Shown here: piece after piece, positions 1 to 45,503 of the stretch
Position numbering within the stretch: position 1 is the stretch's first letter
Layout: each line of letters starts with the position of its first letter
Source of the DNA: a virus
Direction: 5' to 3' (one strand)
IMG/VR virus record: IMGVR_UViG_3300032214_000801
Coordinates: 6,270 to 70,269 of that record
DNA: 64,000 nt
The notes under the pieces: generated by a model
The model's input: the letters and a program-made list of their open reading frames with translations, nothing else
Told to the model about the DNA's origin: nothing
The model's database searches: none
Position numbers and translations under genes: made by a program

Positions 1-1353
1 ACCCTCAGCGAATGGGTTTGCAACCATTCCGTAGCGAGTCTTAAATCCGATTTTTGGCTGGAAGCTGTTCTCACCAACGGCACGAACCATTTGGAGAGGA
101 ACATAAGGACAATAGAATAGTCCTGCGTCATAAGGTGAAGAACCCTTATAACCAACAACGTAGTACTGGTTTCCAGGAGTTGTGTTTCCTGAAGTCAGGT
201 TAGCTGCATAAGGATCGATATAAACACGATACTTACCTTGGAGAACACCTGCGAAGGTGTTGCCAGTGTCATCAACGGTTAGGTTAGCGTTGAGTGCAGG
301 GGTGTAATCAAGTACGCCAGCCATGGTTAGAGCTGAAGCAACGTCTGCCGAGCAGATGATGGTGTTGCCCTTGCCACGACGAGTTCTCTGAGCGATTGCG
401 TTAGCATCACGCTCAATTTGGAACAGAAGACCCTTGAACTTCTCAACACTCCAACGTCCGTTGGAATCAACGTCTAAGTCAAATACACCAGCAGTTGCAG
501 TGTTTTGAACAGCGCCTTGCTCAGCAACCTTATAGATGGTTCTGATAACTTCGCGGTTGATTTCAGCAAGAATCTCAGTTGAGAGAATGTTTGCTAATTC
601 CGCTTCAGCGTTCAGACCGTGGATTGCCTTGAGATCTTGAGCGAGTTCTAGTGAATACTCAGCTTTCAGAGCTCTTGACTTAGCGGTAACAGTGACTTTC
701 TCGATCGAGAATGCCATCTGGTTGAATGCATCTGCACCCGTACCATCAAGATTTTCAGCTTGATCAGTACGCATACCCTGACCAACGTTATATGGTGAGG
801 GGTTGGTGGTTGCAGTTCCAACTGGGTTTAGAACTGAAGGATTAGTACCTGACTGAGCAGTAGTACCGAAACCAACAGAACCATCCGAGAAACCATCGCT
901 ATTGTCGCGTCCAGCAGGTTGTCCGGAGAATGCAGAATCTACTTCGTTGTAGAATGTTTCCGTACCACTCTGGTTGGTATAGCGTGAACGCATTGCGAAG
1001 ATGAGTCCAGTAGGACCACTCATTGGTTGAACGCCTGCGATGTCATAGGCGATCAGATTAGGCATTGAACGTCTGATCAGTGAGATCAGAACGGGATCGA
1101 AACCTGCGGTAGGACCACCTGCAGAAGCGCCGCCACTGAAACCAGCATAGGTGCCGGATCCGGTGCTCATTGTTGGAGCTTCTGTAAGGAATGAACCTGA
1201 GGTTTCAAAAGAAGATTGTTCTCTGAGGAACTTTTCTTGGTTCTCTAGCAGGACTGCGGTTACAGCTCTTCTGTGCGAATCTTTGATTGAATCAAGACCC
1301 TCATAGTTGAGGAGAGGTGCCCACTTTTCCTGCAATTGCTCTGAATGGAACAT
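1..1353 (-). CDS. gp23: Major capsid protein (3' end outside window)
   Basis: Not in the ORF track. Manual translation from ATG at 1353: MFHSEQLQEKWAPLLNYEG...AVLLENQ...FLTE/APT...GFDPVLISLIRRSMPNLIAYDIAGVQPMSGPTGLIFAMRSRY, the hallmark T4-type gp23 sequence; follows gp22. Confidence 0.97.
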   Translation of the reverse strand, partial: MFHSEQLQEKWAPLLNYEGLDSIKDSHRRAVTAVLLENQEKFLREQSSFETSGSFLTEAPTMSTGSGTYAGFSGGASAGGPTAGFDPVLISLIRRSMPNLIAYDIAGVQPMSGPTGLIFAMRSRYTNQSGTETFYNEVDSAFSGQPAGRDNSDGFSDGSVGFGTTAQSGTNPSVLNPVGTATTNPSPYNVGQGMRTDQAENLDGTGADAFNQMAFSIEKVTVTAKSRALKAEYSLELAQDLKAIHGLNAEAELANILSTEILAEINREVIRTIYKVAEQGAVQNTATAGVFDLDVDSNGRWSVEKFKGLLFQIERDANAIAQRTRRGKGNTIICSADVASALTMAGVLDYTPALNANLTVDDTGNTFAGVLQGKYRVYIDPYAANLTSGNTTPGNQYYVVGYKGSSPYDAGLFYCPYVPLQMVRAVGENSFQPKIGFKTRYGMVANPFAEG

Positions 1354-1406: not shown

Positions 1407-2567
1407 TTATTTGCTAAATGATGAAAGTGTTTTCAGATAAGCAGCCATTGAACTTGAGACGGACTCATGAGCAACACTTACTCCCTCTGAAAGAGTTTCA
1501 GTCTTAGCAGATGGAGAAACTCCTCTAGATGGGAAATATGCTTCCCTTAGAGTCTCCAGTTTTTCACGATATGCTTCTTCACTTTCAAACTCAACACTTT
1601 CGGCAAGTGAAGCGAGCTTGTCTTTCTGAGTGTCTGCAAGACCTTCAGAAACTTGATCTAAGATTCCTTCTGCAACCGACTCTGCGAGACGCTTGTTTAG
1701 GGAAACGTTCTTCTCAATTTGCTCGTTGAGTTTTGTCTCCATGTCATCAAGTTTTTCTACCATACTCTCTAGTACATCATATTTCTCTTCAGGGATTGTT
1801 ACATAATGTTCTTCAAAAAGACTCTTCATTCCTTGTAGGAATGATTCAGTCATTTCGGTCTTAAGACCTTTTTCAATTACGAGTGAGTTTTCTGTAACCC
1901 ACTCATCAGAAACATACTCTAGATAGGAATCAACTCTTTCTTGAAGTACAGATTTGATTTCTTCAACTTCCTCTGCTAAAGCAATGGAATATTGCTCTTC
2001 TAGAGATTCCTTAATTTCAGAAACTTTAGTTCTTAGAGCAGCTTCAAAAATGGTTTTTGCTTTCTCTTGGAACTCTTCTGAAAGTTCTTCACCGGCAAGA
2101 AGAGCATTGACATCTTCTTCGATGTCATATGATTCTTCCATTTCCTCTTCGTCTTCTTCGTCTTCTTCTTCCTTCTTACCTTTTTTCTTGCCGCCCTCTT
2201 CTTCCTCTTCTTCTTCCTTAGCTTCGGCAACTACTTCATCTTCATCAATCTCTTCTTCGATGAAATCTTCATCGTCGAGTTCTTCTTCTTCTTTCACGCC
2301 TTTCATTGCTTCAGCAGGCTTTGCTCCCTTATTGACAACATCTCTTACTTGCTTAAGAGTTGCGCCAGGAGTCTTCAGTTTTGCTGAATCATCAGTTGAC
2401 TTATAGTTTGAAGGATCGGGTCCTCCAAGATCTTCCCACCCTGCTGTTTGACCTGGTGTTGAACCAGATAGACTTGGCATTGCGTCCGCTGCCTTTGCAT
2501 TTGCATTAACAGCGGTTTTGGATTGCTTAGTGCCTACTTCCATTTCTTGTAAATCTCCACGAGACAT
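1407..2567 (-). CDS. gp22: Prohead core scaffolding protein
   Basis: Acidic coiled-coil; LSEEFQEKAKTIFEAA and VDSYLEYV..EW motifs; lies between gp21 and gp23. Confidence 0.93.
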   Translation of the reverse strand: MSRGDLQEMEVGTKQSKTAVNANAKAADAMPSLSGSTPGQTAGWEDLGGPDPSNYKSTDDSAKLKTPGATLKQVRDVVNKGAKPAEAMKGVKEEEELDDEDFIEEEIDEDEVVAEAKEEEEEEEGGKKKGKKEEEDEEDEEEMEESYDIEEDVNALLAGEELSEEFQEKAKTIFEAALRTKVSEIKESLEEQYSIALAEEVEEIKSVLQERVDSYLEYVSDEWVTENSLVIEKGLKTEMTESFLQGMKSLFEEHYVTIPEEKYDVLESMVEKLDDMETKLNEQIEKNVSLNKRLAESVAEGILDQVSEGLADTQKDKLASLAESVEFESEEAYREKLETLREAYFPSRGVSPSAKTETLSEGVSVAHESVSSSMAAYLKTLSSFSK

Positions 2568-2622
2568 TTGAACTCTCCGATTAACCTCGAATTTAATCTA
2601 TATTTATTTATAATTTAATAAA

Positions 2623-3276
2623 TTACAGTGAATTTAAAAATTCATTGAATAATTCAATCTTATGCTCTTCTAGACGTTTTTGATCTACAAGAGTATTAAT
2701 TCTTCTTTGGGCTGCTTGTGCTACCTTTTCTCTTAGCATTCCGCCATCCCAAACCCATTCCTTTCCTTCCATGATTCCTTGAACAAAAGCATCAGGTGCA
2801 GAAGGATCTGCAACAATATCAGCAGCAGTTGCTAACATAAAGTCTTCACCAACTTCATTATAACCTTCTTTAGTTGGCTTTACCGAACCAATCCCTCTGG
2901 AAGAAACTCCCAACGTCACTCCTTCTTTAAGAAGAGACTCTGCAATTTTTCCCATGGGGGTTGAAAGAATTTGTGCCTTACCAATAAAATTATTACCTTC
3001 GCGACGAAGTGAAACAATTTTATGAGAAACGCGATCAAGATTTACTGTAGGACCATCAGGATGTCCAAGTTCTCCAAGAGCACGACCTTTATTCACATAT
3101 TGCTCAGTATATCTTTTAACTTCTCTTTCCATCACTGGAAGACGATATACTCTATTATTTCTATTTGGTTGTTCTGTTTGGAGAAAGGGACCTTGAATGT
3201 ATAGAGTTTTTTTCCCGTTTACATTCTCAGTAATAACTTCTACTGATTCAATTTCTTCGGTAATGAGTTTCATCAT
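2623..3276 (-). CDS. gp21: Prohead protease
   Basis: NRNNRVY, ALGELGHP, GVSSRGIGS and DIVADPSAPDAFV motifs of T4 gp21. Confidence 0.96.
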   Translation of the reverse strand: MMKLITEEIESVEVITENVNGKKTLYIQGPFLQTEQPNRNNRVYRLPVMEREVKRYTEQYVNKGRALGELGHPDGPTVNLDRVSHKIVSLRREGNNFIGKAQILSTPMGKIAESLLKEGVTLGVSSRGIGSVKPTKEGYNEVGEDFMLATAADIVADPSAPDAFVQGIMEGKEWVWDGGMLREKVAQAAQRRINTLVDQKRLEEHKIELFNEFLNSL

Positions 3277-3836
3277 GCCTGTCCTGAGATTTGTACTTGT
3301 TGAGCATAAACAATTCCACCACCACCTTCAGTTCTTGCAGCCAATCTGTTTGACATTGCCAGAGATGCTCCAGCAGAAGATCCTGCAGAAGAAAATGCTG
3401 TTATAATGCCACTAGAATTATAACCAAGAACTATTCTTGATTGGTAGTAACCATTTACGCCAGAAGAAGTATCTACTGAGGTAACTGGAACATGAACAAA
3501 ATTATAGTTTGAATCATTTGCCCCAGTTAACGATACATAATCCCCAACACCAAATGGTGATTGAGTTCCTTCAGCAAAATCGATAATAGTTGTAGTTCCT
3601 GTAGTTATTCCAACAACTCTATTCGATGCTTTTGTCATCGCAAGAGTTACTGAATTTCCTACAGGAATATAATAGTCTGCAGTTGTAGCAGTTGGGTTAG
3701 CTCCAATCGCTACAAATGCACCTGCAGATACAGCAGTAACTCTCATTACGTTCGATTGAACAATAAAGGAGGTTGTCATTCCCGAGGCGGCACTTATTGA
3801 GAGTGAAATGCCAGCACCAACTGGTCTATGCGCCAT
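3273..3836 (-). CDS. Hypothetical, probable virion protein
   Basis: 187-aa beta-rich ORF with its own late promoter (3861-3867), inside the head operon. Confidence 0.7.
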   Translation of the reverse strand: MAHRPVGAGISLSISAASGMTTSFIVQSNVMRVTAVSAGAFVAIGANPTATTADYYIPVGNSVTLAMTKASNRVVGITTGTTTIIDFAEGTQSPFGVGDYVSLTGANDSNYNFVHVPVTSVDTSSGVNGYYQSRIVLGYNSSGIITAFSSAGSSAGASLAMSNRLAARTEGGGGIVYAQQVQISGQA

Positions 3837-3873
3837 TATTTTTACAGTTCATTTAGTAATTATTTATTAATTT

Positions 3874-4026
3874 CTATTCTTCCTCAGAATCAAACATCGA
3901 TTGTGAAACCAAAGGACGCATTGAATCTATTTTTTCGGCAGATTTTGTGAATAATAATTCTTTAATCTTGTCGCTAATCTGAGATGGAGACTCATCAGTA
4001 GCAATCATATCTAAAAGATCATCCAT
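3874..4026 (-). CDS. Small acidic protein downstream of portal (gp67-like position)
   Basis: Manual ORF MDDLLDMIATDESPSQISDKIKELLFTKSAEKIDSMRPLVSQSMFDSEEE (50 aa); late promoter at 4054-4060. Confidence 0.7.
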   Translation of the reverse strand: MDDLLDMIATDESPSQISDKIKELLFTKSAEKIDSMRPLVSQSMFDSEEE

Positions 4027-4056
4027 TATTTTGAATATTTAAGAAACTAAAAATAT

Positions 4057-5769
4057 TTATATCATGCCCCCCTTGGGCATTTCAGCAGCTTTTCCATCTG
4101 CTTCTGTTGCTCCACCACCTTTAACACCATCAATATTTGGTTCCATTACAGGTTTCCCTAGGTCCATACCAGTAGGTTCTCCATTTTGTCCCATTCCTGG
4201 TTCAATTGGTAATCCTGTCATCGGATCAACTGGGATATTCGGATCTGGGATAGTACCATTTTTAATTTCTTTTGCAATAAGTTTATCTTGATCAACAATT
4301 TCTTCATCTGTTTGACGAAGAATTTTTCTGCGAACATAATCTTGAGAATAATATTTCCCAATGTATGGTTCTGCTTGAGCTACCATATTCAATCTTTCTG
4401 CCAATAATTCAGCATCTTTTAATTCCGCAAAATGATTGTCATAAAGGAAATCATATTGAATATGCTCATCCATCATTTGCCAATCTTCTGGCGTGATGAT
4501 ATTTTTTAGAATAAGTTGAGTTCTCAGCATATCACTAAACATTGCTGAGAATCTTTTTCTCAAACGAGCAACAAACTTACTGAACTTAACTTCATCGCGA
4601 AGAATTTCTGAAGAACGTCCAAGATTAAATCCACCTTCTCCACCAATTCTTGTTGTGGGAACATTTAAAGATCTATAGAGTTTTTCTTGGAAGTAATTAA
4701 TATCAGTAATTTCTCCTAGATTTTGTCCACCAGGAAGTGTAGAAATTTCTGTTCCTCTGCCACCTTCGCGTCTAGGAAGCCAGAAATCTTCTAACATACT
4801 CATAAATTTCTTATCATCACGAATTTCTCCAGTTGATGCATCATAAACCATCTTATTACGATAACGCATCATAACATCTCTAAGATATTGTTCTGCCTTA
4901 ACTTTAGGAAGATTGCCAACGTCAATGTAGAAAATACGACGTTCTGGAGCACGAGATAGTCTGTAGATAACAAGAGAATCTTCAATCATTCTTAGCTGAT
5001 TGAGAGATTTGATTGCTTTGTGGAGATATGATAGAGTTGATCCCTTATTTCTATCTACTAATCCAGATGTGCAGTATGTAATAGAATCTTTAGTGAATTT
5101 GATCCCACCAGTACCACCTAAAGAAGATGGATTGGTTGTAGGATATGTCATCTTTGGATTATATACAAAATATTCCTCAATTTCGGGGAATTCATAATCC
5201 ATTGGATCGTCAACGTTAACCCCAGCGAGTCTATATTGTTTTTTATCGTTTTCGGATTTTTTTTGTTGACGTACATAACGCATTTTCATTGCGTCAATGT
5301 ATCTTAATTCTTGGATTCCCTCTTGGGGATTTTTTAAATCTATTACTTTATGGTAATATAGTCTACCGTCAATATACCAATTTCTATAAATTTCGTGAGA
5401 TTTTTTATCAAAATCTAATAATTCTAAAATATATTTAAATTCTTCTCTAATCTTTTTCTTGACACTATCACTTGCATTAAGATTGGATAGTTCTATAGAT
5501 ACTGGACTATCATTTGTATCACTTACAATCGCTTCACTTACAATATCTTCAATGGCACTATCACATTCTGGGTGAAGTGCCATTTCGCGATATCTTTTAA
5601 TTAAATCAAATTCAGTTCTATAAACACCCTCAATATCAACATAGGATCCAAAAAATCCACTAGTTAAATAAAAATCAGACCCGTCCTCATTATTAGGTGG
5701 AACGGGTGATAGTGTTGAGGGGGATAAATTATCATCCTCCTCAATAGAAAAACCAAACAACTTTGCCAT
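4057..5769 (-). CDS. gp20: Portal vertex protein
   Basis: YRLSRAPERRIFYIDVGNLPK and EDFWLPRREGGRGTEI motifs, the g20 cyanophage marker. Confidence 0.98.
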   Translation of the reverse strand: MAKLFGFSIEEDDNLSPSTLSPVPPNNEDGSDFYLTSGFFGSYVDIEGVYRTEFDLIKRYREMALHPECDSAIEDIVSEAIVSDTNDSPVSIELSNLNASDSVKKKIREEFKYILELLDFDKKSHEIYRNWYIDGRLYYHKVIDLKNPQEGIQELRYIDAMKMRYVRQQKKSENDKKQYRLAGVNVDDPMDYEFPEIEEYFVYNPKMTYPTTNPSSLGGTGGIKFTKDSITYCTSGLVDRNKGSTLSYLHKAIKSLNQLRMIEDSLVIYRLSRAPERRIFYIDVGNLPKVKAEQYLRDVMMRYRNKMVYDASTGEIRDDKKFMSMLEDFWLPRREGGRGTEISTLPGGQNLGEITDINYFQEKLYRSLNVPTTRIGGEGGFNLGRSSEILRDEVKFSKFVARLRKRFSAMFSDMLRTQLILKNIITPEDWQMMDEHIQYDFLYDNHFAELKDAELLAERLNMVAQAEPYIGKYYSQDYVRRKILRQTDEEIVDQDKLIAKEIKNGTIPDPNIPVDPMTGLPIEPGMGQNGEPTGMDLGKPVMEPNIDGVKGGGATEADGKAAEMPKGGMI

Positions 5770-5807
5770 TATTAATATTGAACTTTTAGCTATTTATCTT
5801 ACTATTA

Positions 5808-6377
5808 TTAGTTCTGTCCGGAGAATGGAGTCCAGTATTGGACTTGGAATTCTACAGTAAACTCTTCAATAGTATCAGAACTGTCATAAGAAAGATCAAT
5901 TGCGGAAATATTGGTTGGGAAAATATCGTAGAATTTATACTGAGCAGCAACAGATAAATCGCCACCAAATGGAGTATTTCCAGTTGTGCTTGGATTTCTT
6001 GTAAGTTGCCTTACAGTAGCTTCCTTCATATATTCATTTGGATCTGTTGAACCACTTGCATCACCATATTGTGCAATTGATTGCATCCAACCTTCCATTG
6101 CTCTTCTAATTGCAAAATCTTCATCATTAATGACAGTTACTGTCCAAGTATCAAATGTTCTGTCGCCAGCAACTTTAAAAATTCTTCCTCTAAAAGGAAC
6201 ATCAATTGAAGCTACATTAGAAGCTGGTAATTGAGCAGCTTTACATAGAATACTAAAGTCCGAAGAACTATAGTTTCCTTGTCCACCTGGAACATCAGTT
6301 AGAATTACTTCAAAAAGATTAGGGCGGGCACCGCCCCCTCTTAATGTAGATTTAAAATCCTGGATTGTGTTTGCCAT
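5808..6377 (-). CDS. gp19: Tail tube protein
   Basis: GGARPNLF, AGDRTFDTWTVT and IEEFTVEFQ motifs. Confidence 0.95.
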   Translation of the reverse strand: MANTIQDFKSTLRGGGARPNLFEVILTDVPGGQGNYSSSDFSILCKAAQLPASNVASIDVPFRGRIFKVAGDRTFDTWTVTVINDEDFAIRRAMEGWMQSIAQYGDASGSTDPNEYMKEATVRQLTRNPSTTGNTPFGGDLSVAAQYKFYDIFPTNISAIDLSYDSSDTIEEFTVEFQVQYWTPFSGQN

Positions 6378-8641: not shown

Positions 8642-10288
8642 TTACATATACTCCCACATGTATGATCGATCCCCATATTCGTCTAAAAACCATCTATCTC
8701 CATCATTATCAACAAAACTTTCATTATCTAATCCATCAGAAATAAATCCAAACGGTGACATGTCTTGCTCTATTTGATTTTTTTGTTCTTCATATAATCT
8801 CTTTCTTACGTCCTGATCCGTCAATTCTTTGAAATAGTCTTGTGCAACTAACCAAGCATATATTACCAAACACATTGCTAAGTCATCATTACACCCTTCT
8901 TCAGCTTCAAATGAATTGTGCTTTTGAATGAATGTTGTAAGTTCACTCATAATTTCATAATCATTGAATATGAGTTTATCTTCCTCAATCATTGTCTTCA
9001 GGTTGAGACACCCAACTTTTTTGACAGTTTTTGACATCTTAACGCCAAGTTGAGTCTTCTTTCCAGAAAATCCTTGTCCAACAATCTGTCCTGCCCTACC
9101 TCTCATAGAGCACATTAATAGATTATTATATTCCAAATCATATTGAAGAATGCTTGCTACTTGATCTCCAACATCATTGACTTCACATAAAATATATGCA
9201 CTATTATAACTCTTTGCTACATCGTAAATAATGCTTGGGAAAAGCATTGGCTTAATTTCATTATTTCTATACTTAGCAACTACTTTGTGGGGGAACTCTG
9301 TAATATCAGTTACGACAAACGCTGAGTAATCGCTCCCTACGCCCCTTGCAACGTCCACAGTGATGAGATAGTCGTGTTCTTCTATAACGTCTTGATAAAC
9401 GTCTAAACCCGCGCTACGTGTCTTAGGATGATCGTATACGAGGTTCCTGAGTTTGCTTGGTGCAATGAGGGTATCGACAGATCCTAGGAATTCGCACTCA
9501 AACTCAACTTTGAATTGCTGTTCACTAGTGTTTGCAATAGTTTGCGCTTTCCACTTCTCATCTCTACCAGGAACTTCACTCCAATGAACATCAGTGAAGA
9601 TATATTCATTTTTTCCCTTCTCAGCATCATGCCACATACGGTAGAAATGATTCATACCGTGAGGAGTTGAAACTATAATAACCTTAGTGCTTTTACCTGA
9701 AGTAATCGTGGGATATACTGATGCAAAGAATGAATCTGCAATATGATTCGGAACGAATGCAAATTCGTCCAAGAACAGAATATTGAATGACATACCCCGA
9801 ACAGCAGATGCTGATGTTGAAGCAGCCAGGATCTTAGATCCATTTTCTAGTTCAAGTGAACCCTTGTTCCAAGAAATAATGCCCTGTTGCATCCACTTGG
9901 GTAAGTTTTCATATGCAGTTTGAAGTCTATCAAGAAGTTCTCTTGCAGTTGCTGCTTTGTTTGCAAGAATACCAATATTCACATTATCGTTAAAAACTGC
10001 ATAGTGTAAAAGAAAAGATACCACAGTTGTTGACTTTCCAGTCTGTCTGGGCATCTTACAGATATTGAATCTGTGCTTGTGAAAATTATTAACTAGTTTT
10101 TCTTGAAATGGATACATCTCAAAAGGCATCAATCCGTGATCCAAAGTCACGATCTTGACATAATTTTTTGCAAAATATACCGGATCTTCTTTACATCTCA
10201 TAAACTCAAGAATTTGTTCTTGAGTGAATTCAATAGCAGTATTTGCTTTTTTTAAATTCGGATTACCAAGATAAACATCATCTGCCAT
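8642..10288 (-). CDS. gp17: Terminase large subunit
   Basis: Walker A PRQTGKST, Walker B LFLDEFAF, STPHG, RNase H-like DVARG and DDLAM. Confidence 0.98.
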   Translation of the reverse strand: MADDVYLGNPNLKKANTAIEFTQEQILEFMRCKEDPVYFAKNYVKIVTLDHGLMPFEMYPFQEKLVNNFHKHRFNICKMPRQTGKSTTVVSFLLHYAVFNDNVNIGILANKAATARELLDRLQTAYENLPKWMQQGIISWNKGSLELENGSKILAASTSASAVRGMSFNILFLDEFAFVPNHIADSFFASVYPTITSGKSTKVIIVSTPHGMNHFYRMWHDAEKGKNEYIFTDVHWSEVPGRDEKWKAQTIANTSEQQFKVEFECEFLGSVDTLIAPSKLRNLVYDHPKTRSAGLDVYQDVIEEHDYLITVDVARGVGSDYSAFVVTDITEFPHKVVAKYRNNEIKPMLFPSIIYDVAKSYNSAYILCEVNDVGDQVASILQYDLEYNNLLMCSMRGRAGQIVGQGFSGKKTQLGVKMSKTVKKVGCLNLKTMIEEDKLIFNDYEIMSELTTFIQKHNSFEAEEGCNDDLAMCLVIYAWLVAQDYFKELTDQDVRKRLYEEQKNQIEQDMSPFGFISDGLDNESFVDNDGDRWFLDEYGDRSYMWEYM

Positions 10289-10305: not shown

Positions 10306-12330
10306 TTAACAATTCCAAGCTCTAAGTGATTTATTGATTCTCGAATCTGGATCGTTTGCAGTCTTTGCTGAAGTTAATTTTTTCTTCATGCCTTTCATAC
10401 GAGCACAGAAAGAATCTCTGCGTGATCCACCTTCAGGTTGAGGTTTTTTTAAATCACTACCAGGATTTTCTCTTTCGTAGGATTTACGTCCTTTTTCATT
10501 TAAACCACCACTTTCAGACTTTCCCTCTTTTCTCTGCCAAGCAGCTACTTCTTCTATTTTTTCTTCTCCAATTGTTCCATTATTGAGAAGATAATTCTTT
10601 GATTTCGAATTTACAACCTGAATTAGTGGCATTCCAGGTTGAATACCAGAAACATTATATTGAAGAACTAATGCTCCTGGATACACTTTTTGAATTTCAG
10701 AAGTTACATCTTTTCTAGATGGCATTCCTACTTGTGGGAAAAACATTCTAATAGAATAAGTTTTACCTCTCCAAGAAAGAATTACTGCAATAATATTTCC
10801 AGTTTCTCCTTGAAGTCTTGTTGCCTCTTCAAGATCATTATTTGCCATAAAAGCACTCTTTGGAGATACTATTGGTTCTGGCTTAATCAAATCAATAACT
10901 TCGGCATATAATTTTCCATTTGCATCTTCAATAGTTACATCTTCTTTCATTTTCTCTGCTGCTTTGCGCTTGGCAAATTGCATGTATGATTCGCCAGGTT
11001 TTAATTTATTACTATAATCTGGAGAAGTAGATTGTCTACGATCTTCTCTAGCACGTTGGTTAGCACCAGGTCCACCTAATTTACGATCCTGTTCTGGATC
11101 TGGATGCCAGAAATCGGCACGTTCACTAACATCTTTCTTTTTATTTCCCCAGTTTGCTGCACCAACTTTACGACATTTTACAATAGCTCCAGATGCATAT
11201 GCACTTGGCCAAATTTTATATCTTGATTTTACCTTTTCCTTACATGCATCTTCATTTACAAATTCTTCAGTTGCAACATTTTTTGCCTTACCACTTCTTT
11301 CTGCGTTTGGATCTTCTCTTCTTTTTCTTTTCGCTGCTCTTTCTTCTTCTTCAGGTGACATTTCAGCCGCCATTTTAGAACTACCACACTTGGGCTTAGT
11401 AGTTTGTCCTGGCTGTTTTGCGCAAGATTTACCGGCGTATTTACCACCTAATTGAACCCATCCTGGTTTTCCATCACTCGATTTACTTTTTGAAAACCAG
11501 TCATGAAGAGAAGAATCTCCCGATTTAGTTTCTTCCCCTACAGGGACACAATTAGGAACAATCTTTTTTCCTTTCTTTTTCATGCCTTGTTGCTTATATC
11601 CAGTCCAACAAGGATCTTCTTTAATTTCTCCAAGAATTTTATCTACAAGTCTTTCTTCTTTTTTAACTTTTGGAAGTTCGGTAGTTTTTCCTAACTTTCT
11701 TTTTGCCACATCTGCCTCATTGGCATTTGATGATGTAGTTAATGCTTCAATTTTTCTTCTTTTCTTCGCTTCTTTGTGTGCAGTAGGATTTATTGTAAAC
11801 GATTCATCCATTTCTTTACTGTCAACATAATCTGCGGCAGTATCAATATAATCTGCTGCTTTTGTAATTTTTGACTGAACCCAGGCTTCTAAGTTTCCTT
11901 CACCTTTTCCAACTTTCATTTGCAATCTTTTAATTGCATCTTTCATGGTAGCAAGTTCTGAACGTGCCATTGAATATTCTTCATCTTTAACAGAAACTTT
12001 ATCCCATGCCTTTTCGCCATAAGAACATTCAGATCTTGATTCTCTTTTGTCACAAAGTGGACAATATCTTTGCTCTTCGTTAGACTCTTTTACATCTTTA
12101 AATTTTTTATGTTCTTTTTTTGCAGATGCTTCCATTTTCTTTAAACGAGTATAGTAATCTGGGATTTCATCTAAATGTTGAAGAGCAATATCCATTGCAA
12201 GAGTATGATCTTTTGTGTGCTCATGCTCAATTGGTTCTCCCATATCTAGTTGCTTTTGAATAAAAGAAACATCAAGACGATGTTTCTTTGCAATTTGTTC
12301 AACTGTTTTATGAGATTTCAATTTGGGCAT
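10306..12330 (-). CDS. Modular basic protein between gp16 and gp17; candidate internal-head polyprotein
   Basis: 674 aa made of short unrelated Lys/Arg-rich modules, most ending in [VILM]-x-E; own late promoter at 12353-12359. ORF is secure, function is inferred. Confidence 0.7.
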   Translation of the reverse strand: MPKLKSHKTVEQIAKKHRLDVSFIQKQLDMGEPIEHEHTKDHTLAMDIALQHLDEIPDYYTRLKKMEASAKKEHKKFKDVKESNEEQRYCPLCDKRESRSECSYGEKAWDKVSVKDEEYSMARSELATMKDAIKRLQMKVGKGEGNLEAWVQSKITKAADYIDTAADYVDSKEMDESFTINPTAHKEAKKRRKIEALTTSSNANEADVAKRKLGKTTELPKVKKEERLVDKILGEIKEDPCWTGYKQQGMKKKGKKIVPNCVPVGEETKSGDSSLHDWFSKSKSSDGKPGWVQLGGKYAGKSCAKQPGQTTKPKCGSSKMAAEMSPEEEERAAKRKRREDPNAERSGKAKNVATEEFVNEDACKEKVKSRYKIWPSAYASGAIVKCRKVGAANWGNKKKDVSERADFWHPDPEQDRKLGGPGANQRAREDRRQSTSPDYSNKLKPGESYMQFAKRKAAEKMKEDVTIEDANGKLYAEVIDLIKPEPIVSPKSAFMANNDLEEATRLQGETGNIIAVILSWRGKTYSIRMFFPQVGMPSRKDVTSEIQKVYPGALVLQYNVSGIQPGMPLIQVVNSKSKNYLLNNGTIGEEKIEEVAAWQRKEGKSESGGLNEKGRKSYERENPGSDLKKPQPEGGSRRDSFCARMKGMKKKLTSAKTANDPDSRINKSLRAWNC

Positions 12331-12358: not shown

Positions 12359-12793
12359 TCAACCTTGGCTGTCTTGGGTTTGTTGCTTCAATAATTTTGC
12401 AAGTTCTGCTGTAGAACCCACAAAAAGTGCATTTGTTACATTAGTGGGACCTTTAATATGCCTTTCTTCTTCAACATCTTTTAACTTTTTTTGAAGATCC
12501 ATTAACTTATCGGTTGCATCTGCAACATTCTTGATTAATTGTCCGGCAACTTCGTATGCTCTAGGCATTTCACTTTCCTGAGCTAATTCGAGAATGCCAT
12601 TTATTGCCTCTTGTCCTTTTTCAATTAATGAATACAAGTTTCCTCGTGTATATTCATAATCTTTTTTTATATCGTCTATTGGGGCTTTGATCTCTTCAAT
12701 TTTTTCAATAATTTTTTCTGAGTCTGTTTGTACTATTTCGCTGGAAACATTGAATGCTTCGTTTAATCCGTCGAATTTTTTTGTCATTTTCAT
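12359..12793 (-). CDS. gp16: Terminase small subunit
   Basis: DYEYTRGNL, PRAYEVAGQLIK and FVGSTAEL motifs. Confidence 0.93.
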   Translation of the reverse strand: MKMTKKFDGLNEAFNVSSEIVQTDSEKIIEKIEEIKAPIDDIKKDYEYTRGNLYSLIEKGQEAINGILELAQESEMPRAYEVAGQLIKNVADATDKLMDLQKKLKDVEEERHIKGPTNVTNALFVGSTAELAKLLKQQTQDSQG

Positions 12794-16306: not shown

Positions 16307-16520
16307 TAATTAAACTCCGTAGTAAATTTTTAATTTCATCAATATCACCTTTCATACTAGCAAGATCCTCTTCAAAGTTTTGTATTTTTTGATTCTCTTT
16401 ATCTTTTGCCTCCTTTCTTTTGAGATACTCATTATATTCAGCCATATTAGTATTGATAATTGAGTTATTTTTTGGATCTCTAACTAAATTTGAGTATCCT
16501 TCAACTTTAATATATGTCAT
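16293..16520 (-). CDS. Small hypothetical coiled-coil protein
   Basis: 75 aa; start overlaps the stop of the upstream giant gene. Confidence 0.75.
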   Translation of the reverse strand: MTYIKVEGYSNLVRDPKNNSIINTNMAEYNEYLKRKEAKDKENQKIQNFEEDLASMKGDIDEIKNLLRSLINGSK

Positions 16521-19500
16521 TATGCAAGAGCGATGACTTTCAGATCTCTAATTCTTGGAGGATATGCTTGATTCGTTGATGTAAGAACAATCTTAATTCT
16601 ATAAGAATTAAAACTTGGTAAATTATTAATGGTAAACTTATATTCCTTAAACTCAAGAGTTGGCGAAGAAAACCCTAGAGAAGATGATGGAGGAATATAT
16701 GAATCTGGTTTGCCATTATTGTTGGCAGCACTAATAATTTGTTTGTTGCTATCCAAGTTATCCCATCCTGGGAAAGGAATGAAAATAGGATCAAAGTTCT
16801 GTTTATTGTCAATTGCATAGAATGCACGGATGTCCGAATAAACATTCATATGTCCATCAAGAATTACTTGAATAGAAGTTGCTGGATTAATCAAATTAGT
16901 TTCTTTAGAAACATATTGGCATGATGTTGGATCCAAATCAATAGAATTCACTCTCTTATCAGTTGCATAATTTGTAATAGGACTATCAATTCTATTTGAT
17001 GTCAGAATTACATTTGTTCTCTCTAGATCAATTACTGGACTTACTTTAGAGTCTAAAGATGAGAGGATAAGTCTCATATTAAATGACTTATTATCTGGCA
17101 GGTTATTTAACTTATAGTACTCATTTACTTGGGAACAAATAATGCGGGTACTATCCAAATAATTCGATTCATTCAGAGATACGAATTCGTATCCATTGTC
17201 AACATATGCAAGTTCATTTCCATTAATACTTCTACCAGTAATAGTTCTTATTTCTGCATCAATGTTGGTGCTTCTCACTGTCATATTTTGAATCATTGGA
17301 GTGATGATTTCATATGGCATATTCTGAGTTGCAAAGACATTGGATCCACCAGTTGTCTTAGTTTCGTTGAAATATAATTTGGGGAAACTTAAACCATCAG
17401 ATCTTCCAACTCCACTTGTAGAAGACATGTCAATTGGTAATGTATAAGAATCGAATGTGATTGGAGTGTTACCTGTATAATTTCCGAGATAATGAATCTT
17501 ATTGATTCTTCTCAGAGAAACTCCACTAAGTTCATATTTGGAAACTGGTGTTCCAGGTGCATGATTCTTAGGAGTAGTTCCATCAATACCTCTTGTAATA
17601 ATTCCTCCAAGTTGGTTTCCATAAGATGAAGTATAAGAAATGATTTCATCTCCAACTAAAGCATAACCAACATTGGTAGTTCCAATTCCAATATTTTCAA
17701 AAGTATTGAAGAGATTGATACTTTGAACTGACAATGGAGCTACAGAGTCACTCTTATATTCAAGAATTAATTGAGTTGATGCAGAGTCTGATTGTACTCC
17801 TTCAATTCTTACATAGTTGTCACTAAAATACATTCCATGATTTCTATGATTTACATTGATTGATTTGCCATCAGCTAGGACAGAAATTCTATTAATCGTT
17901 ACATTACCACCAACAGCGGCATTTAGATCTGTAACTAAACCAACTCTATTGATAAATCTTACAGTTGCACCAACACCAACATTGAAATCTCCCTGAACAT
18001 TATCAAGAACTAGTTCATTTGTGCTAGCAATAGAAACAACAGATAATCTCAAATCTTTTCCTTCTGGAGAAGAACCTAATTTGGTTACACTCAGAACATC
18101 GCCTGCTTGATAACCACTTCCACCATTTGAAATAGTCGCTGCTACTGCAACACCATTTGTAACGGTAATATTTGCCGTCGCATTTACACCAGATCCAGTT
18201 ATTGAGGTTAGTGCAACTCCAGCAAAGGTATATGATCCTCCCATCGTGAATGATGGAGTATATCCTATTCCTGGATTGACAATAGAAAGTGTAGAGAATG
18301 CAGAACCTGCACTTCCAACATAATTTCCGCGAGCATTACTATTTCCTTGCAGTACTGTGGCACCAACTAGTAGATTTGGATCTACAACCGTTGCACCAAG
18401 TCCAACTCTAAGTCTTCTTGAATTGGTAGCAATACTATCTGGAAGTAAATTTGCAATTTGATTATTGCCTTTCGATAAAGGAGGATTTCTAAGATCAAGC
18501 GTTCCATTCAGTAAGAAATCTGCTCTATACAATACGAATTTCAAATCTTCCCATTGACTTGGATCCCAAGTAGATGCATTTTGAGATTTAAATAGTGATC
18601 CAAGGTAAGGTTGGGTTGAAATATACTCTCTAGTAGTGATATCATTTTCTCCAACTCTAGAAATAAAGACATTATATGCTGAAGAGTTTGATAATAAAAC
18701 AATTGCATATTCTTTTTGCCCTTCTAAGTAAACTGGAGCCTCAAAAACAAATGTAGTTGCAACAGATCCGTCATCAGATAGATTTACTTGACTTGGACGT
18801 AAAACAATTTCTGAAAATGGAAGTATCTTAGTAGTGGGAGTTCCCAATTCAACAGTTCTAATTTGAAGAGTAACCGGAACGTTGGTAGTATCTTTGGTTT
18901 TAAAGAAAATATCACACTTTGATAAGAAGATGCCGGCTGGTTCCTCAACAAAGAATGATTCTGCTAGTGGATCGTAGTATCCAACTAAAACTCTACTTGA
19001 AGTACTTGAAACTACATTTGAAGATACTAATGCACTAGTCGTTTGAGATGCGGCTCTTGATTCTGTTGTACTTTGAACTTCAACACGGGCATTCCTTACT
19101 GCAAGAATATTTTCTTGCACAACTTCAATTGTTCCTTGGGATGTAAATCTTTCTTCAGCAAACGTAGTGGAAGTTGGTTTGCTGTTTGAAGTATTATTGA
19201 TTAAAGTAAATACCTTTTGTCCGGCAAGGAATCTTGGGAAACCAACAACATCCGGTGGAATAAAGAAACTACCTCTAACTTCTGCAGCAATATCTGAAAG
19301 CAATCTAACACTAGTGATTCTAGCTTGAGCTTTACTTGTCTGCCCAACAAGGATCATATCCTGCGCAACCCATCCAGAATATTCTCCTTGTGGTTGATTT
19401 GAAAGCGAGAACAAGTCAACATTCAAGATAGTGGATGTTGAAGAATATGTGCTTGGTAGAGTTCCTGCAGTGTATGGATTTTGTGGATAAGTTAATATTG

Positions 19501-22500
19501 GTGAATTATATGGACCTTCTGCATGATTTGATGTTGCTACTCTGAAGGTTATGCCTGGTACAGATTGCTGCCAATTGATACCAGTTCCTGTTGCTGGAGA
19601 TCTTCCAACAACATTTTCGCCAACTTGGAAAACTCCGGAAATCATTTGAATTTCTAAGAGTTTCGGTGTGCAGAATCTTGTTACGTTGATTCCGTCAAAG
19701 AATGCATATAACTCAGTTGATGGCTTAACTCTCTTACCTGTCCAAGTTATATTACGTGATCTCATATATGGAATAAGATCACGACTTACTGTTCTATCGC
19801 CAAGTGAAGTTCTGTCGATTTGTTCTACAACTGATGTTCTAGTATTTGTCCTAGTTGAAGTTCCAGTTAAAGTTGTAGTTCTTGTAGTATCTCTCCTAGT
19901 AGTTACTGTTTGAGTTCCCCAAACTGGTAGAATCCCTCCACCAGTTGAACCTTGCCACGCACCGCCACTAGTAGTAGTTCTTGTTGATGAAGTATCTACA
20001 AAACTAGATCCCGTCCAAATAGTCTGCCAAGATCCCCATACTGTTGGTGCAAGTCCTGTTTGAGGATCTACTCCAAATCTTCTTGAGGCATCTGCCATTA
20101 CTGTTGCATAATTACCTTCGGCATTAATTGTTCTTGCCTCGATTCTTTGAGTAGAAACCCAAGTATCTGAAGATGGAGTAAGTTCAAGTGTTCCTTGCCA
20201 GAAAGTAATAACGAAAGGAGTTACATTTTCGGTTCTAGTTGCAAATCTTTGAGCCAACCATTCAACTTCTGAATAGTCGAGAGTTACAATATCCTTATTT
20301 TTTCTTACATTAATTCCTGTTGGAGCAGTATATTGTAAATCTGGCTTTTGCTCAGAAGAAACAAATTGTCCGATTGAACTTCCAATAGAAGTTACAGAAG
20401 CTGCGGTTATATCTAAAGAATTTGTAAAGTGAGAAGCTCTTAATTCATTAGTCTTTGGATCAATACTATTTTTGAATATAACTCCATTTTCTTGAGAATC
20501 TAAAGATGTAAAGTTATCGACAAAGAATCCGGATTTAAATTTATTTAATCCGTCATTATCAGGAATAAATAGATTTTCTGTTTTTGTTTCTAATAATGAA
20601 AGCGCAGTATAATATTCTAAATTTTGAATTCTAGTTTCTAATTTTCTGATATCAGACATCTGATATCTCTTATATTCTAAGAAATTGAAACTTACATCTG
20701 ATATATTATACAGGTATGCTGGAATACTTACTGATGCAATTTCTATAGCATCGTCAACTAAAATAGGTCTTTCAGGATTTTCTGATGGAGTTCCATATTT
20801 TACTTGGAAAACTCCATCTTTTGTGAGGAAAATTCTATCTATTCTTGGGAGATAGAATGAATAATCAACAACAATATCTTCATCAGAAGCTAGAATGTTT
20901 GAAGAAGAATTTCCGTTCTGAGTAAATACTCTTCCATAAAATTCTAGGGGAGATCTTATTCCTTCGTTTACACTATAATCTGAAACTCTAGGTCTAATAT
21001 CGATGATATCACCGTTACTTACCCCATCAAAGAATTGAATATCTTTTTTATAATCAAAGTTTCTATATGAATTTACTGTTGTAATATCCCCATCATCGGA
21101 TCCATCATAATATCCATTTGAAAAATATGCTTTTAGTTTTCTAACAGGTGATAGAGAATCTGATTTTCTCTTAATGTATCCATAATCATAGAAAAACTTA
21201 TTTTGTCCAATTCCGTAGACATAATTTCCAGAAATATTTTTACTTGGAGTATCAAGAGTTCTAATTACGCATTGAACTCCACTTTCCAAACAGTTAATAG
21301 TTTCACCTTCTCTAAATGAAAGTTCATTCTTCATTAGGAATGAAATAGTCGAATCATCTATTAACTCCGCTACAATAGCGGAAGCATTACTACTTTGCCC
21401 AACTATAGTTTCTCCAATTACCAAATCTGTGGTTTGTCCACTTGAACCGTTGATTGCAGAAAATACTGCTGTTGGTGCAGATGGAACTGTATCATCATAG
21501 GATTCAAAAATTCCATGAAGTTCTATAATATCAGCACTGTTTAAGGAGATTATTTCATCCTGAACTCTTGTGCCATAAGGATATGCTCCGTATGCTAGTC
21601 CATCATTAGTTGTTGTTGATCCAATTCCAGAAGATGAATACTTGGATTTATCGATAATAATACTTGAAACTCTATCTTTTCTCTTTATTTTCTCTTTAAC
21701 GTTAATTTTTTTCAATGTTGCAACTAAAGTTGCTCCAGTATCATTGGAACCAAGTCCATAGATTTGAAGTTCGCTTCCACCATTTGTGATTTCGAACTTA
21801 TCTGATGTCAGTACCTCATAATTGCCATCAGATCTTACAAGAGTGTATCTTTCCTCATCAAATGGTAAAAATGTCTCATTTGTTTGTGCAACTACGGTTG
21901 TTGAAAGACGATTTCCTGCAATATTGACTTTATATGTCTTTCTGATTACTAAAGATGCTCCACTTAAATTAACTGAAGCAATATTTCTCTTTGGAAGTCT
22001 TGTGTAGAAGCTATTGTCAGATGAAGAATCTAATTTGCTTTCAATAATTTGGAGATTTGATACTGTAGTCGTTGCTGTTGGTAATGTTGACGAATTAATT
22101 CCTGCAACTGATTGAATTGAAGCAATTTCAACAGATGTTTTACCAACACTTACAACTTTTGCATAAATTTTATTTGGATAATTTAAGTCAGTATATGAAA
22201 CTAGATTAGTATTTGCTACTAATGATCCTGGGAATTGAGCATTTGCCGCAATTACTGTGCTTGTGTTTAGAACATAGCTGATACTTACACCAGCTCCTAT
22301 AGGCATTGCAGAAACATTTGTAAATGTAACAGCAGTACCTGAAACTATTGAGGATGTATTTAAGAAAGTTACAGCTGCCCCAACTGATGCTGTGTATGGG
22401 GTTGTAAATCCTACTCCAATTGTTACGAATGTGTTGCCAATCGATGCTACAGGAACATATGTCAGTGCAATACCAACTCCAGATCCTACACTGATAGAAC

Positions 22501-45185: not shown

Positions 45186-45503
45186 TCAGTTAAGGCGCAT
45201 TCCAGAGAAGAAAGGAATCGTGCCGAATTGATTAGAACTAAAGAACCACTGTCCTGCTTTCTGAAACACACGCTCACCATCAATTCCGTGAGCGAAAAGA
45301 ATAGCGTTCAGGCGCGACTTTGTGGTGTTTGTTTGATGCTTACCGTCGAACAGTTGTACAAAGTCCTCACCGATAGTTGCGATCTGATTACCATGCAGAA
45401 ACACACGGGAGATCTTACCTTCGGAGACAACTTCAGTGTTGCCACTCTTCCAATTGAGAGCTTCGTTGATAGCTTCGTTCATCAGGGATTCGATCTTGCG
45501 CAT
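45186..45503 (-). CDS. Early hypothetical protein
   Basis: 105 aa; first gene downstream of the palindromic promoter copy at 45573; VFLHGNQIA...TNTTKSRLNAIL. Confidence 0.8.
   Translation of the reverse strand: MRKIESLMNEAINEALNWKSGNTEVVSEGKISRVFLHGNQIATIGEDFVQLFDGKHQTNTTKSRLNAILFAHGIDGERVFQKAGQWFFSSNQFGTIPFFSGMRLN

Follow-up and report, generated by a model that had tools for sequence, protein, structure and literature searches.

A candidate head-cargo polyprotein built from shuffled mini-modules in a T4-like cyanomyovirus

The internal proteins of phage T4 are the textbook case of proteins that are packaged alongside the phage DNA and, once injected, disarm the host. T4-like cyanophages are some of the most numerous viruses in the ocean, and we know of no recognised counterpart of the T4 internal proteins in those of Prochlorococcus and Synechococcus. 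In T4 itself, according to the available part of PMC9026906, the first ten residues of internal protein IPIII are a capsid-targeting sequence, the prohead protease gp21 cuts after the glutamate (Glu) of L/I-x-E, aspartate (Asp) at P1 blocks processing, and the propeptide of the major capsid protein gp23 comprises 65 residues. Here, we describe a gene for a 674-residue protein in 64,000 nucleotides of viral DNA (the window; positions 6,270 to 70,269 of IMG/VR virus record IMGVR_UViG_3300032214_000801), which we regard as a fairly probable head-cargo polyprotein cut by the prohead protease. The protein is modular, its modules are shuffled among relatives, a short motif is placed non-randomly at the junctions between them, T4-like leaders stand on some of the relatives, and the same phage carries both the protease and a known cleavage site for it. 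An initial annotation had read the gene as one packaged precursor that is cut into a cocktail of small internal proteins. This interpretation is partly supported, in that the shufflable modules, the prohead-protease-type junction sites and the ties of the family to the head hold, whereas the 674-residue protein itself carries no N-terminal targeting peptide.

In the scheme that we favor, one 76-kDa precursor, comprising some ten autonomous mini-modules of 3-11 kDa of which eight are basic, would be incorporated into the prohead, the T4-type serine protease gp21 would cut it after the Glu of V/I/L/M-x-E at the module junctions, the released small proteins would stay in the DNA-filled head, and the pieces could then act on the DNA or on the host. 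Because the same modules are reordered, gained, lost and separated again among relatives, the cargo set would vary from phage to phage.

When eleven module cores (M1 to M11) were cut from the protein, converted into hidden Markov models (HMMs) and run on its relatives, more than 60 different orders were found in 246 relatives. Together with free-standing copies of M10 and the DUF6321 domain (M11), this bears out the expectation that the modules would stand alone or be reordered in related phages. The BLASTP matches in isolates, namely SSM1_115 of S-SM1 (E 3e-107), ORF29 of S-SCSM1 (E 1e-80) and SSM2_109 of S-SM2 (E 4e-76), contain the same modules in other orders. Large insertions and deletions relative to the 120 nearest homologs are bounded at residues 79-85, 177-181, 238-240, 263-267, 357-360, 397-401, 459-464, 475-501 and 590-593, and steps in alignment occupancy coincide with these positions. 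SSM2_109 (locus 3701..5827) holds an extra module, absent from the 674-residue protein, that is bordered by SVKE/S and IDIEE/G, so the same junction rule applies around a further module.

The family to which the gene belongs is large. SSM1_115 is annotated T4-LIKE GC: 119, and homology to the genes of S-SM1 and S-SM2, together with the same position between gp16 and gp17, makes the 674-residue gene a member of T4-GC119, which the available part of Sullivan et al. 2010 (PMC3037559) records in 15 of the 16 cyanomyovirus genomes compared, its genes measuring 276 to 2,985 nucleotides. In a family scan, all 8,000 scored candidates of 370-1180 residues matched, as did 7,998 of the 8,000 of 30-369 residues; 9,953 clusters (50% identity) match at E 0.001 or better and 641 at 1e-30 or better. 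Annotations within the family read hypothetical or virion protein only, and a search of the ESM Atlas returned the family's own clusters only, some of which have members carrying DUF192. No second gene with these modules was found in the 70-kb genome, and the open literature yielded no description of the family or its processing, although subscription papers and unreadable supplements may hold more.

The initial annotation had listed nine hydrophobic-x-Glu motifs at the ends of modules, and all were found, with Glu at residues 82, 176, 238, 266/267, 360, 403, 463, 502 and 594. The relatives reveal how consistently such motifs (phi-x-E, where phi is V, I, L, M or F) occupy the linkers, defined as the 3-40 residues between module cores, with those at least 60% alike within a module pair removed. 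By shuffle statistics that overstate independence, because the cores were drawn with the initially annotated sites in view and the sequences are related, phi-x-E occurs 340 times in all 390 proteins (73 module pairs, 350 linkers) against 172.7 ± 10.4 in shuffles (z 16), and at least one copy is present in 270 of the linkers against 137.6 expected, a level reached by 0 of 500 shuffles. Among 146 representatives at no more than 50% identity, the motif occurs 235 times in 259 linkers against 126.1 (z 11.8), with at least one copy in 193 of them. It is found in at least half of the linkers for 61 of the 73 module-pair types. The corresponding counts for phi-x-D (53 vs 57 expected) and phi-x-Q (26 vs 25) show no such excess, and phi-x-K and phi-E are depleted; the junction motif discriminates Glu from Asp. 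When every residue pair at spacings of 1-4 was scored without prior choice of a motif, VxE, IxE and LxE took three of the first four places (z 6.8-6.9), which matches the specificity of T4 gp21, with MxE at z 5.2 and E-A at z 5.8. At 296 junction sites, P3 is occupied by V (35%), I (28%), L (19%), M (12%) or F (6%), and P1' most often by A (28%), G (11%) or S (11%), while within module cores phi-x-E is depleted (654 vs 939 ± 30).

Because the module cores had been drawn knowing the sites, the boundary test was repeated on independent boundaries, namely the ends of HMMER local matches of the whole query against the 146 representatives (529 starts and 486 ends). A phi-x-E Glu lies within -2 to +4 of 53.5% of the homology starts, compared with 13.8% when positions are drawn at random and 26.9% when subsets of the protein's own Glu are (0/2000 for both), and 50.8% of the ends adjoin such a Glu, compared with 15.9% for random positions (0/2000) and 25.0% for random Glu subsets (p 0.0115). 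The boundaries of homologous modules tend to coincide with the x-E sites, as had been anticipated, and the placement of the motif in the 674-residue protein is far from random. The further expectation that x-E would exceed background holds for placement at boundaries and for the linkers of the family, but not for the raw count in the single protein, which equals chance.

The putative processing enzyme, gp21, is encoded in the same window. The gp23 protein carries FLTE/A as the initial annotation had reported; its GSFLTEA is identical to that of T4, and E58/A59 is aligned with T4 E65/A66. Peptidase_S77 was found in 3 of 3 cyanomyoviruses with the multi-module form and in none of seven small phages with free-standing DUF6321, an association that spans ten genomes and considers S77 as the sole protease family in the small phages.

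A second line of evidence comes from the leaders of T4 internal proteins. When translated from NC_000866, T4 ipII and ipIII both begin MKTYQEFIAE/A, and a near-copy of this leader stands at the N-terminus of 35 of the 390 family members (MKTFQEFILE/A or S, MKTFSQFLLE/A, MKTLKEFITE/N and others), with a module directly after it. Small open reading frames (ORFs) beside the gene carry it as well: in S-SCSM1, ORF30 begins with the leader MKTFKQFMSE/S and carries a free-standing M10, and in S-SM2, ORF108 begins MKTLKQFLKE/T. Moreover, 15 distinct internal linkers are copies of the leader minus its Met (K-S/T-F-x-x-F-M/V-x-E/A), 12 of them directly before DUF6321, which points to the fusion of once separate leader-bearing genes; most junctions carry phi-x-E alone and not the whole leader. 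N-terminal leaders were found in 27 of 77 proteins without DUF6321 compared with 8 of 303 with it. This is a slight indication that DUF6321 may provide another means of loading, although one clade dominates the count (most of the 27). For a capsid-targeting sequence in cyanophages, the open literature gave a T4 review alone, with cyanophage only in a reference title. No convincing leader-bearing ORF was found in the window, and the sole loose match in the 70-kb genome is a 105-residue ORF (45186..45503, minus strand) that begins MRKIESLMNE/A and may encode another head-targeted small protein.

Natural N-termini coincide with the predicted post-cut starts of two modules. At true N-termini, M6 reads MSKSGDSSL, MATKSGD or MNENKSGDSSL and internally ..ELQE/ASKSGDSSL, the P1 Glu lying 6 residues before the start of the M6 HMM in 107 of 177 internal contexts. 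DUF6321 occurs as a free-standing ORF of 81-101 residues in seven small phages, three of which begin MAK(T/S)PAW(Q/T)RKEGK, and the corresponding junction of our protein reads KIEE/VAAWQRKEGK. The unannotated DUF6321 ORF of Synechococcus phage S-CBP4 (locus about 2425..2704) lies between an hli gene and the next annotated gene, with scaffold and major-capsid genes on either side. The record of Synechococcus phage MinM2 calls its free-standing ORF (locus 2507..2752, MAKSPAWTRKEGK...) a "RecA-like recombination protein", apparently in error. Module HMMs run against all ORFs around the podophage DUF6321 genes matched DUF6321 itself only, so the tiny ORFs beside it are not recognisable copies of the other modules.

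It is unlikely, in our estimate, that the gene product is an uncut multi-domain virion protein whose junction motifs are relics of leaders from fused small genes or a by-product of Glu/Lys-rich helical linkers. The internal leader-like linkers indicate that a history of fusion is real, the motif count in the 674-residue protein is that expected by chance ([LIVMF]-x-E, 14 vs 11.9 in shuffles, with a fraction of 0.29 reaching 14; [LI]-x-E, 7 vs 5.9, with 0.38 reaching 7), and proteomic detection cannot tell cut from uncut protein. However, relics would be expected to erode, but those 61 junction types retain the motif, most junctions have phi-x-E without a whole leader, and the Glu-over-Asp specificity, the small P1' residues and the depletion inside modules all speak against an uncut product.

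Relatives of the protein are reported as virion-associated. In the supplement sheet of PMC3037559, the entry under "Existence of Proteomic Data?" for T4-GC119 reads YES, the GenBank product of S-SCSM1 ORF29 is "virion protein", and 45 proteins of S-SCSM1 were found by mass spectrometry in CsCl-purified particles (the available part of PMC9602691). These observations bear on a further explanation, in which the protein is cut by gp21 but resembles the T4 core proteins gp22, gp67 and gp68, serving in assembly or size determination, with most of its fragments then leaving the head. T4 core proteins are indeed cut into several fragments and largely expelled (the available part of PMC9026906), the supplement sheet of PMC3037559 shows cyanophages without recognised gp67 or gp68, and the 674-residue gene lies within the head and packaging block. 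Nevertheless, we consider this quite unlikely, as the family is reported in mature virions, its hypervariable and shuffled module content is unlike that of an assembly scaffold, the modules look folded and have Cys pairs, and they stand free in phages with other assembly systems. A non-head role, as a tail or neck accessory or as a DNA-binding packaging helper, is very unlikely: the place between terS and terL, the basic composition and, in certain small phages, the proximity of free-standing DUF6321 ORFs to tail or terminase genes favor it, but the place says little because the gap between gp16 and gp17 is known as a hypervariable site of insertion (the available part of PMC3037559), the T4 capsid-targeting leader occurs on relatives, and the DUF6321 ORF adjoins capsid or scaffold genes in P-SCSP1c, S-CBP4 and DSL-LC04.

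Several observations weigh against a head-cargo polyprotein, besides the chance-level raw count, the dependence built into the shuffle statistics and the small basis of the S77 association. Loading is the weakest link, because the 674-residue protein, which begins MPKLKSHKTV (DUF5661), and 355 of the 390 relatives are without an N-terminal leader. The strict T4 rule, L/I-x-E, fits only 3 of the 9 cited sites; the M2/M3 border of the protein (residues 113-116) has no phi-x-E; and among the junction types mostly weak in the motif, it is found upstream of M9 in 19 of 42 contexts and upstream of M3 in 25 of 46. The proteomic evidence for relatives is at the virion level and does not separate head from tail or full-length from cut protein, and no cleavage product of any family member was found in the accessible literature.

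Cutting at the nine sites would give ten pieces of 3.1-10.8 kDa (Table 1). The initial description of the modules as basic is accurate for eight of these (isoelectric point, pI, 8.8-10.1) but not for two acidic ones (pI 4.1 and 4.9). The whole protein contains 132 K+R, 103 D+E and 11 Cys residues, and charge alone suggests that the pieces may bind DNA. Every Cys motif that had been cited, with several modules holding their own Cys pairs, was found; C90, C93, C102, C642 and C674 never vary in a 60-sequence alignment, in which conservation of C315 reaches 90% or more. The ends of the predicted pieces are echoed by homology boundaries, which cluster at residues 79-85 around the end of piece 1 (E82 being at least 90% conserved), while homology ends lie at residues 173-177 for piece 2 and 399-403 for piece 6, and residue 238, at the end of piece 3, is the start of 24 homology matches. 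Residues 238-265 (M5) are precisely missing from 27 homologs. The motif stands upstream of M5 in 100 of 107 non-redundant contexts, of M8 in 14 of 14 and of M10 in 79 of 84. Pfam on the whole protein returned DUF5661 (51.3 bits vs a gathering cut-off of 27) and DUF6321 (75.6 bits vs 28.5) only, with no enzymatic, anti-restriction or embedded peptidase (MPTase, Hint) domain; on seven sub-pieces at E up to 10, it gave a sub-threshold DUF5872 match alone (residues 361-397, 19.6 bits, under the cut-off of 27.5) and nothing significant.

Table 1. Coordinates in the window of the gene, its predicted pieces and the neighbouring or functionally linked genes
Feature	Position	Strand	Details
Whole gene, 674-residue modular candidate precursor (T4-GC119 family)	10306..12330	-	75.9 kDa, pI 9.3
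Predicted piece 1, residues 1-82 (M1 = DUF5661), ends DVKE82/S	12085..12330	-	Pfam DUF5661 at residues 11-67, E 1.5e-13
Predicted piece 2, residues 83-176 (M2 CxxC...C mini-module and helical M3), acidic, ends EMDE176/S	11803..12084	-	C90, C93, C102 invariant
Predicted piece 3, residues 177-238 (M4, rare module), ends EIKE238/D	11617..11802	-	Occupancy 0-30% in 120 nearest homologs
Predicted piece 4, residues 239-266 (M5, CW..NCVP beta-hairpin, Cys pair), ends VGE266/E	11533..11616	-	pLDDT 77, two strands
Predicted piece 5, residues 267-360 (M6, KSGDSSLHDWF..GWV..C..KC), ends FVNE360/D	11251..11532	-	Free-standing/N-terminal forms match predicted post-cut start
Predicted piece 6, residues 361-403 (M7, SAYASG..KC), ends DVSE403/R	11122..11250	-	Weak DUF5872 match, E 0.0014, below cut-off
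Predicted piece 7, residues 404-463 (M8, DFWHPDP; rare), ends KMKE463/D	10942..11121	-	Residues 401-462 missing in 41/120 nearest homologs
Predicted piece 8, residues 464-502 (M9, acidic mini-module), ends DLEE502/A	10825..10941	-	E502 invariant; homology starts at residues 497-501
Predicted piece 9, residues 503-594 (M10, beta-beta-alpha-beta domain), ends KIEE594/V	10549..10824	-	pLDDT 83-94 in M10-M11 model
Predicted piece 10, residues 595-674 (M11 = DUF6321, helical, ends ..SLRAWNC)	10309..10548	-	Pfam DUF6321 at residues 603-672, E 5e-21
gp16 small terminase/terS, upstream neighbour	12359..12793	-	PHROG 445, E 3e-56
gp17 large terminase/terL, downstream neighbour	8642..10288	-	Pfam Terminase_6N + Terminase_6C
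gp21 prohead protease, proposed processing enzyme	2623..3276	-	Pfam Peptidase_S77, E 3.3e-34; 42% identical to T4 gp21 over 149 residues, E 6e-32
gp23 major capsid protein, runs off the window	1..1353	-	Pfam Gp23, E 2.3e-146; GSFLTE58/A59

The AlphaFold model of the whole protein resembles beads on a string (mean predicted local distance difference test, pLDDT, 52.3) and is usable for order and disorder only; values below 50 cover 352 of the 674 residues, including all nine cited Glu and 12 of the 14 phi-x-E Glu. In a separate model of M10-M11 (mean pLDDT 76.7), a beta-beta-alpha-beta domain is joined to the helical DUF6321 by a disordered linker (residues 575-593, pLDDT below 50). Fold searches with this model gave no match at E 0.001 or better by Foldseek against the PDB and none at Z of 5 or more by VIA wide. 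The weak top rows for M10 were RNA polymerase epsilon/YkzG (VIA Z 4.8, root-mean-square deviation 2.4 over 54 aligned residues, 6wvk_E) and T7 Gp2 (Z 4.2, deviation 3.9, 53 aligned), with a best Foldseek E of 0.17 (4njc_E); all of these fall short of the level that the tool calls meaningful. A role of M10 as a host-RNA-polymerase-binding piece is a lead only, suggested by the model.

The window comes from a T4-like cyanomyovirus and holds its block of late structural genes, all on the minus strand in the order gp23, gp22, gp21, a DUF7243 ORF, gp20, gp19, gp18, gp17, the 674-residue gene, gp16, gp15, gp14 and gp13; at the DNA level, the closest isolates are Synechococcus and Prochlorococcus myoviruses of the Kyanoviridae. 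The gene does split gp16 from gp17, as the initial annotation had stated, beginning 28 nucleotides downstream of terS and ending 17 nucleotides upstream of terL, and an in-frame TAG four codons upstream of its start excludes a longer N-terminus. The T4 late promoter TATAAATA is matched twice in the window, where chance alone would give 5.7 copies, and neither match immediately precedes the gene; the closest sequence upstream of the gene, GATAAATA, differs from the promoter by one mismatch. The two exact boxes, at 2605..2612 (minus strand) just upstream of gp22 and at 4054..4061 (minus strand) at the end of gp20, prove nothing because they are fewer than chance expectation. The 187-residue DUF7243 ORF (3273..3836, minus strand) takes the position between gp20 and gp21 that gp67 and gp68 hold in T4. 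Downstream of gp13 and two small ORFs, a 2,757-residue ORF rich in Ser, Thr, Gly and Val (16520..24793, minus strand) presumably encodes a baseplate or fibre protein.

A broader reading joins these observations, and we offer it tentatively, as a possibility that is on the whole doubtful. Cyanophage heads would hold a combinatorial cocktail of mini-proteins that evolves by the fusing and un-fusing of leader-bearing internal-protein genes, with the T4 leader kept as a cleavable linker and a C-terminal DUF6321 able to replace it; upon ejection of the DNA, the pieces would leave the head with it and serve to take over the host or counter its defences, M10 perhaps having a Gp2/epsilon-like RNA-polymerase-binding fold. 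If the polyprotein reading is true, cyanophages would gain a hypervariable arsenal of injected proteins, and a bacterial virus would provide a case of polyprotein logic executed by a capsid maturation protease. It would also mark out a concrete evolutionary route, in which tandem leader-bearing genes are fused into one and their leaders are kept as linkers.

Among the known systems, T4 IPI, IPII, IPIII and Alt likewise belong to a T4-type phage and are small and for the most part basic; relatives of the 674-residue gene bear a leader nearly identical to MKTYQEFIAE, and the predicted cut falls after phi-x-Glu and would be made by the homologous S77 protease. The set of T4 internal-protein genes is also highly variable among related phages (the available part of PMC9026906). 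Each of these proteins, however, has its own gene and one N-terminal cut, whereas here some ten units follow one another in a single chain, most junctions bearing a site; furthermore, the 674-residue protein has no leader and no similarity to mature internal proteins, and P3 in its family is mostly Val. The T4 proteins gp22, gp67 and gp68 are single chains cut by gp21 at several L/I-x-E sites (the available part of PMC9026906), but they are assembly proteins whose fragments are mostly expelled and not shuffled sets of folded, Cys-paired modules. The 674-residue protein is not a member of the T4 internal-protein or gp22/gp67/gp68 families. The inner-body and ejected head proteins of phiKZ and SPN3US, compared by description only, lie inside the head and are cleaved by a diverged homologue of gp21, at multiple x-x-Glu sites (the available part of PMC9026906), yet they are large and lose propeptide regions instead of forming strings of mini-modules. 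Polyvalent proteins combine many domains in one packaged polypeptide for which processing and delivery with the DNA have been proposed (Iyer et al. 2017; the available part of PMC5512222, which mentions neither cyanophage nor Synechococcus). Their domains are enzymatic or anti-restriction in kind, with processing attributed to an embedded metallopeptidase, whereas Pfam finds none of these here and the prohead protease would act in trans. The polyproteins of eukaryotic RNA viruses offer an analogy only, with another protease class and no homology; in both cases, one translation product would be cut at short consensus sites into functional units, but here the cutting would take place inside an assembling capsid.

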